From: a virus
Strand: one strand, 5' to 3'
Virus record (IMG/VR): IMGVR_UViG_3300033998_000398
Location: 1 to 47,484 of that record
Length of the DNA stretch: 47,484 nt
Position 1 is the first letter of the stretch, and each line of letters opens with the position of its first letter. The notes below the pieces were generated by a model. That model made no database searches. It had not been told where the DNA came from and saw nothing but the letters and a program-made list of their open reading frames with translations. Positions 3,073-47,484 of the stretch are shown here, piece after piece. Both the position numbers and the translations under genes were made by a program.

Positions 3073-3161
3073 ACCACCACACCTTTAACCCTTTTTTTAT
3101 AAACCATGATTTAGGCTTGTCTAAATTTATAAAACAATTCAAATATTGAGGTGAATAAATC

Positions 3162-3758
3162 ATGGTTCCCACATTTAAAGTAAAAGATTATATAGGAATT
3201 AATGGAGTTGGACTAAACCAACTAATACACCCACATTTTGAAAAATGGTTCGATTATATAATTAATGAATATGAAAAACCAGAAAAGAATAATGTAATTT
3301 TTTTACCATGTGCTGCCATTAAACCATACAATAATTCCCCATTACATAAAAAAATAAATGAAGTTCTCTCAAAATATGAAAATAATCTACACAAAGTTGT
3401 TATTTCTAATGCAGGTATTATACCTTATGAATTTATTGAATATTATCCATTTGAATCCTATGATTGGAATCCTGCATTTGAAGACAATATTAGCAAAGAA
3501 CTATATTATAATACGACATTAGTACGATTAAGATTATTTTTAAAAACTCATAAATATAGAGAATATTTTTCTTACCTTAACCCTGATTCATTATCATTTA
3601 AAGCACTAAAAAATGCATGTAAAACATTTAATTATAATTTACATCATCCTAAAACAATTAAATTAGATTACAAAAGAAAAGACCCTGATTTACTACTTAT
3701 TCATCCTAAAAATTTAGACAATTTAGACAATTTATTAAAACAGGTGATTAAACTATGA
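3162..3758 (+). CDS. DUF5591 / archaeosine synthase (ArcS)-like protein
   Basis: FLPCAAIKPYNNSPLH matches the ArcS/DUF5591 PCxxxKPYxxSxxH motif; VISNAGIIPYE...YP...YDW also fits. Confidence 0.75.
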   Translation: MVPTFKVKDYIGINGVGLNQLIHPHFEKWFDYIINEYEKPEKNNVIFLPCAAIKPYNNSPLHKKINEVLSKYENNLHKVVISNAGIIPYEFIEYYPFESYDWNPAFEDNISKELYYNTTLVRLRLFLKTHKYREYFSYLNPDSLSFKALKNACKTFNYNLHHPKTIKLDYKRKDPDLLLIHPKNLDNLDNLLKQVIKL

Positions 3759-4681
3759 AATATTTTTTCGGTGAAACACCACAAAACCAACTAAACATAG
3801 ACCATGACATGGTAATGGATAGTGCACTATATTATTACACTAAAAAAGACCCTAAAATTAAATATAATTATAACACTCTTTTTATGGATTCAGGTGGGTA
3901 TGCTCTTATTAACAAAGATATTGACTTAGATAAGGACAGAATCCTGGATATTCAATCCTTAAATAATCCTGATTATGTAGCACCACTGGATTATCCTGCC
4001 AACCATTCATATCCTGATAGTGTTAACATTAAAAGATGGAATATTACTTTAAATAATACTGAATATTGGGTAGAAAACACTACCATGAATGTCGTGCCTG
4101 TAGTTCATGCTTGGAATTCCACAGTTCTAATTGATAATATTAAATCTTTAAGTAAATTTGATACGGAATTTATTGGAATCGGTAGAATATCCAGATCAGA
4201 TAGAATCCTCAACAAAGAATTGTTGAATAATTTGATGATAATTCTAAAGTTTTGTAAAGAAAATGGATTTAAAACTCATTTCTTTGGGTTTGGTTCATCG
4301 CCTATTACTTACCATTTAGGTGCATATATGGGTTTTACTACTACTGATTCAGTTGGATTTAAATTAAAAGCCATTAATAATAAAATTTTAATTCCTGATA
4401 TGGGGGAATGTGATGTTAATAGTCCAATAAAAAAATATAGATTGGAACAACTAAAAACTTGTGAGTGTCCTATTTGTGAAGATAAGAATATAGATGAAGT
4501 TATGATTTCTCTTAAGGAAAATTGGATTAATAGGGCTATACATAATAAATGGATTATTGATGATGCTGTCAGGAAATTTCATAGTTTTGATTGTAGAGAT
4601 GATTACAGGCTATATTTAGATGAAATTATGCAGTATTCTAATTATAAGCATATTTGGCAATATGTTTCTTATTTAATGTAA
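3755..4681 (+). CDS. tRNA-guanine transglycosylase-fold protein (TGT/DpdA-like)
   Basis: FMDSGGY, PLDYP, HFFG, TDSV and CECPIC-x21-H Zn site; overlaps the upstream stop (ATGA coupling). Confidence 0.85.
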   Translation: MKYFFGETPQNQLNIDHDMVMDSALYYYTKKDPKIKYNYNTLFMDSGGYALINKDIDLDKDRILDIQSLNNPDYVAPLDYPANHSYPDSVNIKRWNITLNNTEYWVENTTMNVVPVVHAWNSTVLIDNIKSLSKFDTEFIGIGRISRSDRILNKELLNNLMIILKFCKENGFKTHFFGFGSSPITYHLGAYMGFTTTDSVGFKLKAINNKILIPDMGECDVNSPIKKYRLEQLKTCECPICEDKNIDEVMISLKENWINRAIHNKWIIDDAVRKFHSFDCRDDYRLYLDEIMQYSNYKHIWQYVSYLM

Positions 4682-4818
4682 TTTTTTTAATGATTATTTT
4701 TCTGGTATTTATATTTGTACCCTACCCATTTTTACCCTTATTTTTTTATCCTATTTTATGAGTTTCTTTTCCTTTTTTATTGGTTGTATGGGTTTCTTTT
4801 CATGTTTAGGTATGGTCT

Positions 4819-5166
4819 CGCCGAACTACTTTTGGAAAAGGAGGGTTTTCCTTCAAGTTTATCTACAGGTATATGGTTCTGAGAGTTTTCCTGTCTCCTT
4901 TTCCCGATTTGAGGGTGTCCCGCCGAACTACTTTTGAAAAATAAGCCTTCTCCTGTCTTTTTATTTTCATGGTTTTGGATTGGAGTATTCTCCTGTCTCC
5001 TTTTCTTGATTTGAGGGTGTCCCGCCGAACTACTTTTGGAAAAGGAGAGTTCTCCTGCCTCCTTTACAGAGGGGTGTGTTCACTTTTGGTGAAAACCATG
5101 ACAAATAGCATAACTTTGAGTAATACTGTATGTAATTTAAAAGGAGCGTTCTCCTGCCTCCTTTTC
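4819..5166. repeat. Degenerate 102-bp-period repeat locus with two interleaved motifs
   Basis: CGCCGAACTACTTTTG at 4819, 4921 and 5023; TT(C/T)TCCTG(T/C)CT(C/T)(C/T)TTT at ~4887, 4948, 4988, 5050 and 5149. Confidence 0.9.
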
Positions 5167-5428
5167 AAAACACCCAATTTTTAGGTAAACCTAACTTTTT
5201 TCTAAGGGCTTAAAAAAAGAAAAGAAGACCTATGAATAGGAGAAAAATATGTCTCGTCGAGCGATTTTTTCTTCTTTTCAGGAATAAAGACCTCTCAGGA
5301 CTTTTAGGTTCAGTGACCCTCCTACGGGGAAATTCCCAGAAATGCAGCCATAAAACTTTGAAAGAGTTAATCGTAATAACTATCATGATTTCCCGTCGGT
5401 AACCATGATAAATAACGATAAAAAAAGA

Positions 5429-5472
5429 GGGACATGTACCAATAGGAGAGTGTCATCACAGGTACATGTCCC
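5429..5472. repeat. Perfect 12-bp inverted repeat GGGACATGTACC / GGTACATGTCCC
   Basis: Read directly; 20-nt loop. Confidence 0.9.
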
Positions 5473-5673
5473 TATAATATAATGTGTGTGCAATTACATG
5501 TATATTGGGGTGGGTATGTGTTCGTATACATGTCCAATTATACGGGTCGGTACATAAAGAACCATTCCATGAAAAGAAACCTGAAAAGAAACCGTAAATA
5601 GTATTATACATTATAGTATACAGATTAATATCCAAATACATTATACCTGATATGTATGTATACTCTAATGTAC

Positions 5674-5928: not shown

Positions 5929-6606
5929 TTACCATGGTTTGATTGTGTAGTATCCTATGTTTCTGCCGTGGGTTGCTGTGTCCATCATGTGGTAGTGGCA
6001 GGTGTAGATTCCTTTTGTTGGGTCGTATATGGTGTATTTGTCTCCTTTTATGGATTGGATTAGTGCATAATGTCCGTAGTTGTTTAGGAATCCGCTGCAG
6101 TGTGCGGCTTTTGTTTCATAGTGGGTTATGACTGCTTCGTAATTGTATAGTGCTTTCTGGACTGCTTCTTTGTTTCTGGGTATCCTGTTTATTGTTATTT
6201 TTAGTTTGTAGGCATTTTTCATCATTTTTTCTGGGCTTGTACCGTTTTTTGTTGTGCCTATTAGTTTGGCGATTTCTTTTTCTTCTGTGTATTTGAAGAA
6301 TTTGGTTAGTGCCATGCTTATGCTGGTTGGGCAACAGGTGTAGGGTGTTGTCTGGTATTTTAGGATGGTGGGTTCGTTTCTTTTCAGATTAACTGTGGCA
6401 TAATTTGGGTATCTGCCTTTATGATATCGGAAATTGTAGATTGTGTGGAATAGTCCTGAGTATTCCAGTGGTGTTAGTCTGATTTTGTTTTTTCCTCTGT
6501 TGATGTCTGCATAGTTGGGTAGTCTTTTGTTGGTTTTGATGAATTTGTGGATGTTTTCTTCTATTTTTTGGATTTCTTCTTTTGTGATTCGTATCATATT
6601 TTTCAC
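5929..6606 (-). CDS. Endolysin: pseudomurein-binding repeats plus C39-like cysteine peptidase (pseudomurein endoisopeptidase-like)
   Basis: Two KRLPNYA/GRYPNYA repeats; QTTPYTCCPTS (Cys), GHY (His), IYDP (Asp). Confidence 0.85.
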   Translation of the reverse strand: MKNMIRITKEEIQKIEENIHKFIKTNKRLPNYADINRGKNKIRLTPLEYSGLFHTIYNFRYHKGRYPNYATVNLKRNEPTILKYQTTPYTCCPTSISMALTKFFKYTEEKEIAKLIGTTKNGTSPEKMMKNAYKLKITINRIPRNKEAVQKALYNYEAVITHYETKAAHCSGFLNNYGHYALIQSIKGDKYTIYDPTKGIYTCHYHMMDTATHGRNIGYYTIKPW

Positions 6607-7438: not shown

Positions 7439-9781
7439 TTAATCCTCAAACATGTTGATTGAAGTGTCAGGTACTGCTTCGACTGCTCCACCACTAAAGA
7501 TGGTTTTTCTTGGTTCTATCATTTTTCTGAATTTGCTGAATTTCATTTTAGCCTGTATTTCTGGACTCAGTTCATCTAAACCGATTTCCATTGTACCCAT
7601 TGGTCTTTTATCTGTGTCATAATTGTAGGTGATTGATTTTACTTGTGTTACATCATTCAGTATGTTGTTAAAAAAGTTGGTTGTGACAAAATCACCTATG
7701 TCTATTTCATGGAATCCGTCAAGGGTGATGGTGTAGGTGTATTTGAGGGTGGTTTTCTGGTCTTTGTCGGTTTTGGCTTTGTAAGTGGCATAATAGATTC
7801 CTGTTTCATCGTTGAGTACTTCTACATCTTCGTGTGACCCATATCGGAATGTGGTGGCTGGGTCTCTTATTGTTACATATTTGTTGGTTTTGTCTGTGTC
7901 TTTGTAGACTTTGGTGATGGTGTTTTTATGTTTCTGGACTGGTGGGTAACTTATGTTGTTTATGTTCCAGATGTTGCCGTCTTGTCCTTCATAGGCTTCA
8001 AAGATTCTGTTTGGGTCTGGTTTTATTATTTTTAGTTTGTCTTTGCTTCTTTCTTTGTTGTATTCTATTGTTATGTCTGTTTCCAATTTTTCGTTGATGT
8101 TGTTGAGTAGTTCTGAGATTTTTCTTCCGCTGCTTTGTAGTAGTTCTGGTTGTATGGGTTCTCCTTGTCTGAATCCTGTACTTTTTAGTAGCATTTTGTA
8201 ACTGCTTTTGTCTACTTTGGATGTGCTTTTAGGGTCGTATAGGTCGTTGTCGTTAGGTGCTATGTATTTGAGGGCTATTCTTCTTATGTAGAAATTGTTT
8301 CCTGTGCCGTGGAGTGTTGTTAGGATGTCAAGGAGGTTGATTTCTCCTGTTTTGATTGTATTGTTTTCCCAGACTGGTTTGATTTCTCCTATCATTGTGG
8401 AGGGTTGTGAGGCGGTGAATTTTATTGTCCGTGTTTGTCTGGTTCCTGTAGGTGTTAGGCTGTATTGTATTTCTATCCATGCCTGGAATGGTTTGCTTTT
8501 ATCGTATCCTACTCTTCCTGGGACTGTTTTGTAGACTCCTGTTCCTTTCCTGACTTTTCCTGTTTTGGTTAGTTTTTTGGGTATGTAGACTTTGGTGGGT
8601 TTGTCGCTGGCTTCGTTTCCCAGTCCGTATTCTATGAAGAATATGGGTTTGTCGTTTAGGAGGTATCCTTTTTTTTCTTCTGTTTTGTTCCAGGTGCTGT
8701 CCCATAGGATTGCATATTGTGTTGAGCCTTTTTTATGGGTGTTTCTTAGTGTTATGGTGTCTGTGTTGATTGTTTTTATGATGTTGGTGCAGGTTAGGCG
8801 TTTCCGGTCTGTTTTGTTTTTGTAGTTGATTCTGTACCATTTTTGGCTGGGTATTTGGTTTTTTATTTCTTGGATGTTGCTTTGTGTTATGGGTAGTTCT
8901 ATTGCTTCCAGGCAGTATTGTAGTGCGTCGTATAGTGTGGGTGCTTTGTATATTGGTGCGTTTTCGCTGGTTTCTCCTCCTATGCTGATTTCTTTTAGTA
9001 TGTGTTTGTTTTCTGCGTCTATTAGTCTTCCTGCTGCATTTATGGTTATGGTTAGTAGGTCTTCATCGGTTATTGCACTGCTTATGTATCCTCCAAAGAT
9101 TTGTTTTTGTTTGCCTGTTCTGGTTGTTACATAGAGGTTTATGGGGTCTCTGTATTCATAGATTAGTCCTGATGGGTTTCCTGGTTCTATGAATCCTCCT
9201 TCTTGGTATGGTTTGTGTTCGTGTTTTATTTTCATTTCAAGGGTGTCTGGTTGTCCGTTTAAGCCTTTGGTTACTTTTGCGTCAAGTATTGTAATTTGTC
9301 CATTGTTTTCTGTATCTCCTGTGGTTTCCCTGATTTTTTTCATGTATAGGGTTATGAATCCTGTTTTTCCTGTGATTGTTATTGTGTGTGTTCCTTTTGG
9401 GATTAGGTGTGTTCCAAGGTCTGTTTTTCTTATGAATGTGTCTTTGCTTTGTGTTTGTATGTTTTTTAGTGTGTTGTTGTTTATTTTGATGTTTAGTGTG
9501 TCTGGGTTTGTTTGTGTTTTGTGGTAGGCTTCGATTCTGTAGATTCCTGTTTCTTGTATGTTGTAGGTTGCTGTGATGGTGTATGTGTTGTTTGTGTTGT
9601 TGGGTGTCCAGATGGTGAATCCATCCTGTGTTATTGTTTTGGCATTGGATGTATTGCGGTATTCTGTCCCGTATTTGTAGTAGATGTGGTTAGGGTCGTA
9701 TGATTCTACATCCACTTTGATGAAATCTTTAATCCTATGTATTTTCTGTCCTGAATAGGGTCTTTTGATATAGTCCACCAT
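7439..9781 (-). CDS. Minor tail/baseplate hub-like protein, 780 aa
   Basis: Position after the distal tail genes; beta-rich N-terminus; late-control-D-like C-terminus (YTITLDG..EIDIGDFV). Confidence 0.65.
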   Translation of the reverse strand: MVDYIKRPYSGQKIHRIKDFIKVDVESYDPNHIYYKYGTEYRNTSNAKTITQDGFTIWTPNNTNNTYTITATYNIQETGIYRIEAYHKTQTNPDTLNIKINNNTLKNIQTQSKDTFIRKTDLGTHLIPKGTHTITITGKTGFITLYMKKIRETTGDTENNGQITILDAKVTKGLNGQPDTLEMKIKHEHKPYQEGGFIEPGNPSGLIYEYRDPINLYVTTRTGKQKQIFGGYISSAITDEDLLTITINAAGRLIDAENKHILKEISIGGETSENAPIYKAPTLYDALQYCLEAIELPITQSNIQEIKNQIPSQKWYRINYKNKTDRKRLTCTNIIKTINTDTITLRNTHKKGSTQYAILWDSTWNKTEEKKGYLLNDKPIFFIEYGLGNEASDKPTKVYIPKKLTKTGKVRKGTGVYKTVPGRVGYDKSKPFQAWIEIQYSLTPTGTRQTRTIKFTASQPSTMIGEIKPVWENNTIKTGEINLLDILTTLHGTGNNFYIRRIALKYIAPNDNDLYDPKSTSKVDKSSYKMLLKSTGFRQGEPIQPELLQSSGRKISELLNNINEKLETDITIEYNKERSKDKLKIIKPDPNRIFEAYEGQDGNIWNINNISYPPVQKHKNTITKVYKDTDKTNKYVTIRDPATTFRYGSHEDVEVLNDETGIYYATYKAKTDKDQKTTLKYTYTITLDGFHEIDIGDFVTTNFFNNILNDVTQVKSITYNYDTDKRPMGTMEIGLDELSPEIQAKMKFSKFRKMIEPRKTIFSGGAVEAVPDTSINMFED

Positions 9782-27572: not shown

Positions 27573-28061
27573 TCACTCTTTATCGTTTTTTGCTACTTTT
27601 TCATTAAGTGCCTTCCAAATTTCATCATCCTCTTGTATCATACTAATGACATTTTCATCGTATTCCCTGTTGATTTCATCCATGAGTTTCTTATCCAGTC
27701 CTCCATTTAATTCAAGGTAGAGGTTGACAAATTCTTTGAATTCTTTTACATTTCGTATTTTGAATGGTGTTTCACCGTATTGGAGTGGTTGGAATACTTC
27801 TTTGGTGAGTATGGCAAGGATTGCTTTTTTTAGGGTTTCTATGACTTGTGGTGCTGTGGCAAGGTTGGCTTCCCTTATCTTATGGGTTACTGCCTGGTTT
27901 CTTTTCTCTATTCTTTCATTCCATTTGAGTTCTTTCTGCCATTTCATTAATGTGCCGACTGGTATCCCTGTTTCCTGTGCAAGGTCTTTTATAGACCTTT
28001 TTTCACCCATTTCATAGTATAATTCAAAGGCTTTTTCTTGCTGGGGTGTCTCACTTTTCAT
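27573..28061 (-). CDS. terS: Terminase small subunit
   Basis: N-terminal HTH (KAFELY...SIKDLAQETG....LMKW..ELKW.ER); directly upstream of TerL. Confidence 0.75.
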   Translation of the reverse strand: MKSETPQQEKAFELYYEMGEKRSIKDLAQETGIPVGTLMKWQKELKWNERIEKRNQAVTHKIREANLATAPQVIETLKKAILAILTKEVFQPLQYGETPFKIRNVKEFKEFVNLYLELNGGLDKKLMDEINREYDENVISMIQEDDEIWKALNEKVAKNDKE

Positions 28062-28674
28062 GCTTTATAACCTCACCACAATTGGGGCAGATTATCTCTA
28101 TATAGTCGCTATGACTGTACTGTTCATGGTCTTCATCATAGTCTTCTTTCTCTATTATCCCTGCCTCTTTTTTTATTGCTTTTTCCACTGCTTTGCTTAT
28201 GGTGTCTTCTGTTATTTCATCTTTGAAGAGGTCTGGGTCGATTTCTGGGATGTCGGAATTTTCTATTTCTATGTCGCTTAACATGACATCTAATTCAAAG
28301 TCTGCCAGACCTGTAAGTTCTAAATCAAAATTAGTTTCATTTAATTGTTTAATGATGGTTTCCAGTTTATCTTCATCAAAGAAACCACCTATGCGGTTCA
28401 TTGCAATGTTTAAGGCTTTTTCTCTGTCCTCATCGATGTCTATTACTATGCAGTCGATTTCTTTGTATCCCAGGAATTGTAGTGCTTTGTATCTATGTGA
28501 ACCTGATACTATGTGATTGTTTCTTTTGTTGACTACTATGAGTTCCAGGTAACCATTGGTTTCAATGTTCTTGATTAGTTTCTGCATTTCTTCTTCTGGA
28601 AATATTCTGGGGTTATATTCTGGGATTTTAAGTGTGCTGAGTTTTAGTTTCTGTATTTCCACCATTTTAATCAC
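28051..28674 (-). CDS. ParB-like N-terminal domain protein with C-terminal CPNCG
   Basis: YNPR...LIKNI...G....IVVN....IVSGSHRYKAL. Confidence 0.85.
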   Translation of the reverse strand: MIKMVEIQKLKLSTLKIPEYNPRIFPEEEMQKLIKNIETNGYLELIVVNKRNNHIVSGSHRYKALQFLGYKEIDCIVIDIDEDREKALNIAMNRIGGFFDEDKLETIIKQLNETNFDLELTGLADFELDVMLSDIEIENSDIPEIDPDLFKDEITEDTISKAVEKAIKKEAGIIEKEDYDEDHEQYSHSDYIEIICPNCGEVIKHEK

Positions 28675-32071: not shown

Positions 32072-32665
32072 TCACCTTAAGTATGAATGTAAATTGTTAC
32101 TGTAGACTCTGAATTCACCTATCTTTGTACTGGTTTTCCCTGCAATGTATTTAGCGACCTCTGAGAGTGCACACATGTTCGGGTAATAGGCTTCAATGTC
32201 ATGACTTCTAAACAATACTGTAGTAAAGAGCATGTTATTCCGTATCTGGAATTGCACATGGTTCATGCAGGGTATATCATCCAGTTTAGTATCGATTTCT
32301 GGTCTATACAGTACCATTACTGCCCTACGGGTGTTAGGATTCTCTTTAAGTTTATTCACCACATAATCGTACTGGTTATCCATTAATAGGCGTTCACCGT
32401 AAGTGTAGATGAATCCCTGGGTATTGTCCTTGAAGAACTGGTCTATATACTTATCCAGTTTATCTCCTTTCCAGTATGGGTGATTGGTTGGGAATGGGTT
32501 TTTAATTATTGACACTACATTCAGTAGTTCTTTTACCTGTCCCCTTTCAGAATCTTCTATAATTCCTTCTTCATTGATGAGTTTCTTTAATCCTATTTCT
32601 ACACACCTGATGTTTGTGCCTACCACACAGTAGGGTTTATTTCTTGATTGATAGTAGTATAGCAT
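32072..32665 (-). CDS. thyA: Thymidylate synthase (archaeal short type)
   Basis: YTYGERL, TRRAV, PCMNHVQF, FRSHD...PN, NLHSY. Confidence 0.9.
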   Translation of the reverse strand: MLYYYQSRNKPYCVVGTNIRCVEIGLKKLINEEGIIEDSERGQVKELLNVVSIIKNPFPTNHPYWKGDKLDKYIDQFFKDNTQGFIYTYGERLLMDNQYDYVVNKLKENPNTRRAVMVLYRPEIDTKLDDIPCMNHVQFQIRNNMLFTTVLFRSHDIEAYYPNMCALSEVAKYIAGKTSTKIGEFRVYSNNLHSYLR

Positions 32666-32671
32666 TATTTT

Positions 32672-33190
32672 TCACCTACAGATTGAGCATGTTCCTTTAT
32701 GGTATTTGAGTAGTTTGGAGGGTGTTGCAAGGGTTTGTCCATTGTAGACTCCATTGTATGGGTCTGCATTTTTTACTGGGTGGAAACTCACCTGTGCAAT
32801 TGGTTCGTTCGGGTCTAACACTACTACATTATCTGAGGCGTTGAACAGTTCATAGGTTATCTGTCCTTCCCATCCAGCGTCTATTAGCCCTGCATTGTTA
32901 CTGAATAGTCCCATTCTACCTATGCTTGACCTTGTATGTAGTATTCCTGCTACTTCTTTGGAGAATTTGAAGTATTCGGGTGTATAGCCAAGCAGAAACT
33001 CTTTGGGTTTGATGATTATCGGTTTGGTATCCCTTACCAGATTACCCTGTTCGTCATAAAGTTTAGTTGATAATCCTACATCGTAAGTATTAGGCTGTAC
33101 TCTATCAGGATTGTATGGATTAATGCTTATCAATCCTTTTCTGATGTATTCTTTGATTTGATTCCCAGATAACACGGTGCACACTTCCAC
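32672..33190 (-). CDS. dcd: dCTP deaminase
   Basis: QPNTYDV, RSSIGRMG, GLIDAGWEGQIT, IAQV and YNG.YNGQ. Confidence 0.9.
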   Translation of the reverse strand: MEVCTVLSGNQIKEYIRKGLISINPYNPDRVQPNTYDVGLSTKLYDEQGNLVRDTKPIIIKPKEFLLGYTPEYFKFSKEVAGILHTRSSIGRMGLFSNNAGLIDAGWEGQITYELFNASDNVVVLDPNEPIAQVSFHPVKNADPYNGVYNGQTLATPSKLLKYHKGTCSICR

Positions 33191-47350: not shown

Positions 47351-47484
47351 GGTGTTGGTGCCTGGTGTTGGTGCCTGGTGTTGGTGCCTGGTGTTGGTGC
47401 CTGGTGTTGGTGCCTGGTGTTGGTGCCTGGTGTTGGTGCCTGGTGTTGGTGCCTGGTGTTGGTGCCTGGTTTTGGTGCCTGGTG
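47351..47484. repeat. Tandem array of 13-mer GGTGTTGGTGCCT (~10 units, one GGTTTT variant), right end
   Basis: Read directly. Confidence 0.97.

Follow-up and report, generated by a model that had tools for sequence, protein, structure and literature searches.

Pairs of a DpdA transglycosylase and an ArcS2 tailoring protein have already been published for viruses, including archaeal viruses in which the two are the only 7-deazaguanine genes. In this study, we analyzed such a pair, an arcS2 gene followed by a dpdA-like gene, in the IMG/VR virus record IMGVR_UViG_3300033998_000398, a tailed-virus genome of 47,484 bp with most genes on the minus strand; this whole stretch is referred to as the window. 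The closest described counterparts are found in STSV1 and STSV2 (STSV2_15/STSV2_16; Hutinet 2019; Cui/Hutinet 2023, PMC10516641). These archaeal viruses likewise have only two 7-deazaguanine genes, adjacent, co-directional and without preQ0 genes, and their ArcS2 is a DUF5591 core with an intact motif. They differ from the window virus in that the proteins share 23–26% (DpdA) and 30–32% (ArcS2) identity, in that STSV2 has the order DpdA then ArcS2 instead of ArcS2 then DpdA, and in that they are spindle-shaped crenarchaeal viruses, whereas the virus studied here is tailed and very probably infects a methanogen. Furthermore, the host of STSV does not produce 7-deazaguanines, and the DNA of STSV-2, which encodes only DpdA and ArcS, held dCDG (0.04% of G) and not dG+ (PMC10516641).

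The one pair of this kind that has been tested is that of Vibrio phage nt-1, again a TGT-fold DNA transglycosylase combined with a DUF5591-only ArcS2. Its DpdA2 alone gave dPreQ0 in plasmid DNA and, together with ArcS2, dG+ in E. coli without RaSEA (PMC10516641). In contrast to the window virus, nt-1 has its own FolE, QueD, QueE and QueC and a bacterial host; its DpdA2 belongs to another, larger subfamily with a weak fold match to the window DpdA, and its ArcS2, 27% identical to that of the window, has a degenerate motif. Bacterial Dpd systems (DpdA/DpdB/DpdC plus DpdD-K) also exchange guanine for preQ0 using the same aspartates and zinc site (PMC10164549), tailor the nitrile afterwards and serve self/non-self discrimination. 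In these systems, however, DpdA needs DpdB and has four insertions, and the tailoring (to dADG) is done by DpdC and not by ArcS2. The tRNA enzymes arcTGT and ArcS/RaSEA share the catalytic core chemistry with the viral pair, arcTGT being the nearest solved fold and ArcS2 corresponding to the C1 domain of ArcS, but the viral proteins are without the C-terminal and PUA tRNA-binding domains, and no RaSEA was found in the virus. For haloarchaea, Dpd-like systems named BRIGADE have been described, and DISARM, Dpd and Druantia are linked via YprA helicases (bioRxiv 10.1101/2025.09.15.676423).

A preliminary description had presented the locus as a minimal two-gene cassette. It does consist of two genes only, but the design is not new, as STSV1 and STSV2 also encode only DpdA and ArcS. 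What differs here is the tailed methanogen virus, the gene order, the DpdA clade and the clear kinship with modules of archaeal defence islands. In the phage collection and the literature searched, DpdA together with ArcS2 was reported neither for a virus of methanogens nor, haloviruses aside, for any tailed virus of archaea. If the function proposed below is true, 7-deazaguanine DNA modification extends to tailed methanogen viruses; the current understanding of the way these systems function is left as it was.

The arcS2-dpdA cassette and its proposed function

We propose, with a probability of about 0.7, that arcS2 and dpdA are a single operon whose products place a 7-deazaguanine in the replicated DNA of the virus itself. 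The DpdA-like enzyme would work by the double displacement of TGT enzymes, taking guanine out of the DNA and putting in preQ0, drawn from the archaeosine (tRNA) pathway of the host, or a derivative of it; D198 would be the nucleophile and D45 the general acid/base, and the base would be read by D79 and H118. The ArcS2 core would then tailor the 7-cyano group, or act earlier on the free base, which would yield dG+ or a similar derivative. The modified DNA would resist host nucleases; 7-deazaguanines are known to shield phage DNA from restriction (PMC6884629). For homologous pairs, the literature backs each of these steps. The analysis shows that the genes are intact and coupled, that the catalytic residues and the fold are in place, that tRNA-binding domains are missing and precursor genes were not found, and that the cellular members of the family have DNA-centred neighbours; that DNA is the target, that preQ0 comes from the host, which product is formed and that it protects from restriction are inferences.

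Both open reading frames (ORFs) were found at the positions given in Table 1. They overlap by 4 nt in an ATGA start/stop (3755–3758), and each is preceded by a Shine-Dalgarno-like sequence, which bears out the translational coupling of a DUF5591/ArcS-like and a TGT-fold gene noted in the preliminary description. The TATA-like box upstream of arcS2 is a possible archaeal promoter; it is preceded by an oligo-T run (3092–3098) located 3′ of an upstream AbrB-like ORF. Archaea use oligo-T terminators, and the two-gene transcript likely ends at the oligo-T runs behind dpdA. Six or more contigs from other samples carry both ORFs at ~99% identity, and all related contigs that cover the site have the cassette. 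The pairing of DUF5591 and TGT is more than chance because the same families are adjacent, in the same order, in seven further independent contigs.

The ArcS2 protein matched Pfam DUF5591/PF17884 with 54.5 bits (E = 1.5e-14; cut-off 26) and aligned solely to positions 211–342 of the 515-position ArcS model. It has no Nt, C2 or PUA domain and is a stand-alone C1 core; with the profiles for canonical ArcS, NF040592 and NF053620, it scored 51.8 and 64.6 bits at cut-offs of 440 and 600. The motif PC-x3-KPY-x2-S-x2-H, as defined for ArcS C1 in PMC10516641, is exact at residues 49–62 (P49-C50-x3-K54-P55-Y56-x2-S59-x2-H62) and, in an alignment of 15 members, its columns are invariant or nearly so. 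The sole significant PDB match of the AlphaFold2 (AF2) model (pLDDT 86.7) was AF0587 (2q07), an uncharacterised Archaeoglobus protein that also matched by sequence over the DUF5591 stretch (residues 33–102). ArcS2 is predicted to tailor the nitrile of preQ0 or dPreQ0. The ArcS of T. kodakarensis accepts the bare preQ0 nucleoside or 5′-nucleotide, the shape of a tRNA being unneeded (PMC11298593).

In the dpdA protein, all TGT motifs listed earlier as intact (DSGG, LDYP, HFFG, DSV, CxCxxC-x21-H) were recovered, namely MDSGGY (D45), PLDYP (D79), HFFGFG (H175), TTDSVG (D198) and the zinc site C236-x-C238-xx-C241-x21-H263. In a 12-member family alignment, D45, D79, H118, H175, D198 and C236/C238/C241/H263 are on invariant columns, and the catalytic and zinc motifs align with their counterparts in 1iq8 and 7ui4. 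D45, D79, H118 and D198 correspond to Asp95, Asp130, His181 and Asp256 of the S. Montevideo DpdA, an enzyme that no longer exchanges guanine in DNA when mutated to D95A or D256A (PMC10164549). The AF2 model (pLDDT 92.9) had its best PDB fold match with the catalytic domain of the Pyrococcus arcTGT, 1iq8 (TM-score 0.78, Foldseek E = 1e-13; family profile against 1iq8, E = 1.5e-19), and structural matches to viral DpdA-like proteins were obtained in BFVD. It spans only arcTGT residues 70–327 of the 582-residue 1iq8, so that the C-terminal C1/C2/PUA tRNA-binding domains are missing. Profile matches were obtained to TgtA (E = 7e-9), to DpdA (E = 8e-8) and, over a partial region only, to the PADLOC DpdA profile (E = 2e-7), while the Pfam scan gave no match to DpdA4 (DUF6610, PF20314) at E up to 1. 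Not being DpdA4, scoring below the cut-offs for bacterial DpdA and TgtA, and having only the above-mentioned identity to the STSV enzymes, the protein appears to belong to a clade set apart. A "split ArcS", with the dpdA protein as the TGT-like N-domain, was also considered and rejected: no ArcS model matched at E up to 1, and the protein keeps both catalytic aspartates.

For the origin of the precursor, Pfam sweeps of the 47 ORFs were combined with six-frame searches for QueC, PTPS, Radical_SAM and GTP cyclohydrolase I. QueC, QueD/PTPS, QueE, FolE, QueF and radical-SAM proteins were not found in the genome by the Pfam sweeps or, where searched, in six frames, in agreement with the earlier statement that folE, queD, queE and queC genes are absent. 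The same 13-nt tandem array, GTGTTGGTGCCTG, occupies the two termini of the record, with 7.6 copies at 1–99 and 10.3 copies at 47351–47484, and four independent contigs break in or beside this array. We therefore regard the genome as probably whole, either circular or with terminal redundancy, although CheckV puts its completeness at 55%. As preQ0 genes are missing from a probably whole genome, we infer that the precursor must come from the host. This host is very probably a pseudomurein-walled methanogen of the Methanobacteriales because the lysin has a pseudomurein-binding repeat, which points to such a wall, and because several virus proteins resemble those of Methanobacterium virus PhiF1, the host of which is Methanothermobacter. 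The large terminase subunit (TerL) gave only distant matches to isolate phages (~32–34% identity).

Several points weigh against the proposed function. The dpdA protein reached 27.1 bits with TGT/PF01702, barely above the cut-off of 26.3, and it stayed far from the cut-offs for bacterial DpdA (NF041059; 31.5 vs 200 bits) and TgtA (TIGR00432; 34.5 vs 350 bits). In the profile comparison suggested in the preliminary description, the proteins thus fell below the equivalog cut-offs of DpdA, arcTGT and ArcS alike. Sequence and fold place it nearer to arcTGT, a tRNA enzyme, than to the DpdA of bacteria, and three deletions make the viral protein ~40 residues shorter than the cellular members of the family. 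In bacteria, DpdA depends on the ATPase DpdB, and no such partner adjoins the viral cassette; the sole ParB_N protein (28051–28674, minus strand; E = 1e-11) is located 23 kb from the cassette beside the terminase genes and more likely serves packaging. The six-frame search missed the weak TGT domain of dpdA itself, and very divergent precursor genes could escape it as well. Finally, the acquisition of the cassette looks recent, and its few population variants comprise 2 and 4 replacements versus 0–2 silent changes and hence no synonymous excess, the replacements avoiding conserved columns.

Archaeal relatives and defence islands

The transglycosylase family is rare, with 217 matches at E up to 1e-3 and 8 at E up to 1e-30 among 1.84 billion representatives; ArcS2 has many archaeal relatives of ~200 amino acids at ~50% identity. 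Among isolate viruses, the window DpdA matched only STSV1, STSV2 and STSV4, with identities of 23–25%. The search of viral contigs gave no match with the single DpdA protein and one truncated locus (L013) with an alignment, and the search of genome contigs with the transglycosylase family gave five loci in metagenome-assembled genomes (MAGs). Eight loci of ArcS2 homologs with usable flanks were sampled. ArcS2 is directly followed by a member of this transglycosylase family, 348–369 amino acids long, in seven of them (L008, L011, L014, L015, L020, L021 and L022), that is, in the viral order, and the linkage also occurs in a further locus, L027. The eighth, L012, is a PhiF1-like contig without transglycosylase. 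The cellular ArcS2 and DpdA proteins are 46–51% and 29–37% identical to the viral ones, and the tight coupling is shared.

Directly up- or downstream of cellular homologs, a PCNA-like clamp is encoded (L008, L016, L017 and L007), and near the cellular pairs a protein of 262–285 amino acids, a large AAA ATPase (1100–1540 amino acids), NurA and HerA were found. A Thaumarchaeota MAG has a DpdJ-like helicase (E = 4.6e-43) and an MZB protein beside the homolog, and one pair adjoins DndB and a protein of the PAPS-reductase family (Pfam PAPS_reduct). No preQ0 genes were found inside the ArcS2-DpdA islands; a radical-SAM gene upstream in L011, considered as a RaSEA candidate, gave only generic MoaA/viperin-type matches well below the cut-offs. 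The islands of Methanothermobacter sp. EMTCatA1 and of Loki- and other archaeal contigs thus have both families, the order and the tight coupling in common with the virus, but their DpdA is ~40 amino acids longer and is embedded with PCNA-like proteins, DrmA/DrmB or DpdJ-like proteins, AAA ATPases and HerA-NurA, whereas the virus carries the pair alone.

One of the cellular ArcS2 proteins shares a 90% cluster with a protein of Methanothermobacter sp. EMTCatA1, in which the pair is part of a chromosomal island (L027, Table 1). Its genes have the order HhH-GPD glycosylase, full-length DrmA (1493 bits), DrmB, a 971-amino-acid protein, PCNA-like protein, ArcS2 and DpdA-like protein, followed by a 262-amino-acid protein, AAA ATPase, a 178-amino-acid protein, NurA, HerA and AAA_5. 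ArcS2 and DpdA are 49% and 37% identical to the viral proteins, with the same order and coupling. The island resembles DISARM, except that a deazaguanine module seems to take the place of the expected methyltransferase. Read in this way, ArcS2-DpdA, assisted by the clamp, would write an archaeosine-type base in the chromosome, and HerA-NurA or DrmA/B would be the effectors. In the literature searched, no paper describing archaeal ArcS2-DpdA islands was found.

Three archaeal MAGs with the transglycosylase paralog also carry a canonical arcTGT (>450 bits). Since the same MAGs keep this canonical copy, the paralog is judged not to be the housekeeping tRNA enzyme. Together with the DNA-centred and defence neighbours of the relatives, this makes DNA a likelier target than tRNA. 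Thereby, the larger part of what the preliminary description had proposed, a DNA modification system using host preQ0 with tRNA as the lesser alternative, gained support from the missing tRNA-binding domains, the extra paralogs beside arcTGT, the clamps, helicases and HerA-NurA next to the relatives, and the lack of a preQ0 or radical-SAM gene in the searches of the virus. In a quick tree, the viral DpdA shared a clade of 98% support with the cellular proteins linked to the pair or to PCNA; within this clade it was set on a long branch apart from the two cellular subclades, and therefore no donor can be named.

Two further viruses carry parts of the cassette. The contig L013 (IMGVR_UViG_3300031260_000113) is of a tailed virus and ends in a DpdA N-terminus (8001–8348) that is 89% identical to the Methanothermobacter-type chromosomal DpdA; its TerL is 37% identical to that of the window, and the gene before DpdA is not ArcS2. 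PhiF1 (L001, MK994522.1) has an arcS2 homolog at 962–1612, 52% identical and with an in-frame stop at codon 5, which is annotated as ORF75 from an internal GTG; no dpdA-like match was found anywhere in its genome. The 89-amino-acid ORF behind this arcS2 was considered as a DpdA remnant and rejected (hhalign probability 0.1). In L012, a metagenomic relative with 98% identity, the ORF of 216 amino acids (5001–5651) is intact, again without dpdA.

Alternative explanations

The alternative that survives best, and a quite conceivable one, is that DNA is the target but the product is not dG+, being instead a preQ0-lysine adduct formed without RaSEA, or dCDG, dADG or plain dPreQ0. ArcS of T. kodakarensis makes preQ0-Lys and stops there without RaSEA, which is required to reach G+ (PMC11298593), and no radical-SAM gene was found in the virus. 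In STSV-2, the two-gene virus most similar to this one, dCDG but no dG+ was present (PMC10516641), and nt-1 DNA contained mainly dPreQ0 with traces of dG+ and dADG (PMC10516641, PMC6884629). However, the nt-1 ArcS2 gave dG+ in E. coli, which lacks RaSEA (PMC10516641), the motif that is degenerate in nt-1 is exact here, and a RaSEA of the host might act in trans. As the STSV-2 DNA held dCDG rather than dG+, the product cannot be inferred from the sequence; in this part, the preliminary description needs correction. The window virus offers a system for asking which product ArcS2 makes on DNA without RaSEA, a question left by the work on STSV-2 and nt-1.

Somewhat less probable, and put forward tentatively, is that the virus carries, in this pair, the modifying half of a DISARM- or Dpd-like system of its host without the restriction half, so that it wears the "self" label of the host and passes the system. 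Phages do likewise with orphan methyltransferases. Archaea including Methanobacteriales may then carry undescribed DISARM/Dpd-like islands with ArcS2-DpdA in place of the methyltransferase, and the virus may counterfeit their self-mark, which we also regard as a speculative possibility. The EMTCatA1 island fits this explanation by its co-directional genes from DrmA to HerA and by the identity, order and coupling of its pair, as do the pseudomurein-binding lysin of the virus and the genes in common with the Methanothermobacter virus PhiF1. In addition, contigs of the virus and the island type co-occur in JGI sample 3300034520, and the viral contig L013 carries the DpdA N-terminus with 89% identity to the chromosomal one. 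On the other hand, Methanothermobacter has a GC content of ~49%, which the 37% of the virus does not match. A recent capture from the island was not seen in the quick tree, in which the viral DpdA is on its long branch outside the subclades, and general protection from ordinary restriction enzymes explains the genes equally well. If the island reading is true, a matched pair of host system and viral counter-measure exists in methanogens.

That the cassette is a recent, horizontally acquired passenger, not (yet) functional or useful in this virus, is unlikely. Its composition is foreign: the GC content is 0.245 for arcS2 and 0.289 for dpdA compared to 37% for the virus genome, and the GC content at third codon positions (GC3) is 0.126 and 0.223 compared to 0.32–0.44 in 16 other genes, which confirms that the region is more AT-rich than its flanks, as had been noted before. 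The virus shuns short palindromes to an extreme extent, leans heavily on site avoidance against restriction and has been purged of GATC, CTAG and GGCC (Table 1). Because of the low GC3 and the only GATC of the genome inside dpdA, the cassette looks like a later arrival that is not yet adapted to this palindrome avoidance. The replacement and silent changes of the variants, too few to be informative, and the PhiF1 genome, which keeps only an interrupted arcS2, would also fit a passenger. Against this, both frames are open with all invariant residues kept, the structure models are confident, the Shine-Dalgarno sequences and the ATGA coupling are maintained, the replacements spare conserved columns, and no related contig covering the site is without the cassette.

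An action on RNA, in which the pair re-modifies host or viral tRNA (at G15 or elsewhere) and tunes translation during infection, has very little probability: the nearest solved structure and the best curated hidden Markov model are those of the tRNA enzyme arcTGT and DUF5591 forms the catalytic core of ArcS, likewise a tRNA enzyme, but only the barrel is present without PUA, C1 or C2 tRNA-binding domains, the virus encodes no tRNA according to a search of the window, hosts already have arcTGT and paralog-bearing MAGs keep the canonical copy, the family neighbours are clamps, helicases and nucleases and not translation genes, and phage DpdA did not complement tgt (PMC6884629).

For modification of the viral DNA by the pair, the reading that we prefer, the virus is a useful system: it is small and probably complete, its cassette is delimited and compositionally foreign, and homologs are present in a DrmA/DrmB-HerA-NurA island of a complete chromosome. 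It can be used to ask whether the precursor comes from the host tRNA pathway and whether a deazaguanine is the self-mark of an archaeal defence system.

Further features of the genome

The features of the cassette, of the remaining virus genome and of the chromosomal island are collected in Table 1.

Table 1. Features of the window and of the related chromosomal island
Feature	Position	Strand	Basis or remark
TATA-like box TTTATAAAA	3126–3134	+	~28–36 nt 5′ of arcS2 start; read from sequence
Shine-Dalgarno-like GAGGTGA	3148–3154	+	7 nt before arcS2 ATG; read from sequence
arcS2, 198 aa, stand-alone DUF5591 (ArcS C1 catalytic core)	3162–3758	+	PF17884
Shine-Dalgarno-like AGGTGA in arcS2 end	3742–3747	+	7 nt before dpdA ATG; read from sequence
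dpdA-like gene, 308 aa, TGT-fold TIM barrel and Zn site only	3755–4681	+	PF01702, fold
Oligo-T runs right after dpdA stop (TAA 4679–4681)	4682–4700	+	read from sequence
GATC	4194–4197 (inside dpdA)		sole copy in 47.5 kb; observed 1, expected ~141–155
CTAG			observed 0, expected ~97–155
GGCC	38588		observed 1, expected ~55
AGCT			observed 16, expected 87
ACGT			observed 5, expected 27–155
Lysin: pseudomurein-binding repeat and C39-type peptidase	5929–6606	-	
Large and small terminase, Mu-like portal, tail tube			profile matches
Family-B DNA polymerase, anaerobic ribonucleotide reductase (NrdD)			profile matches
dCTP-deaminase-like protein, short thymidylate-synthase-like protein, dUTPase, ParB_N protein			profile matches
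Short thymidylate-synthase-like protein and adjoining dCTP-deaminase-like protein	32072–32665 and 32672–33190	-	
Island L027, Methanothermobacter sp. EMTCatA1	AP018336.1 420480–441073	co-directional	complete 1.72-Mb chromosome

The thymidylate-synthase-like protein is short (197 amino acids) and matches only positions 110–213 of the Pfam model. Given the set of thymidylate-synthase-like and dCTP-deaminase-like proteins, dUTPase and NrdD, the virus may have a second, pyrimidine-directed DNA modification. In the gene-poor gap of 1.2 kb located 3′ of the cassette, repeats were found at 4796–5167, comprising a 57-nt unit in three copies with an exact spacing of 102 nt and a 29-nt unit in six copies of AAAAGGAG...CTCCTTT character. 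These repeats could be an origin or a regulatory array.

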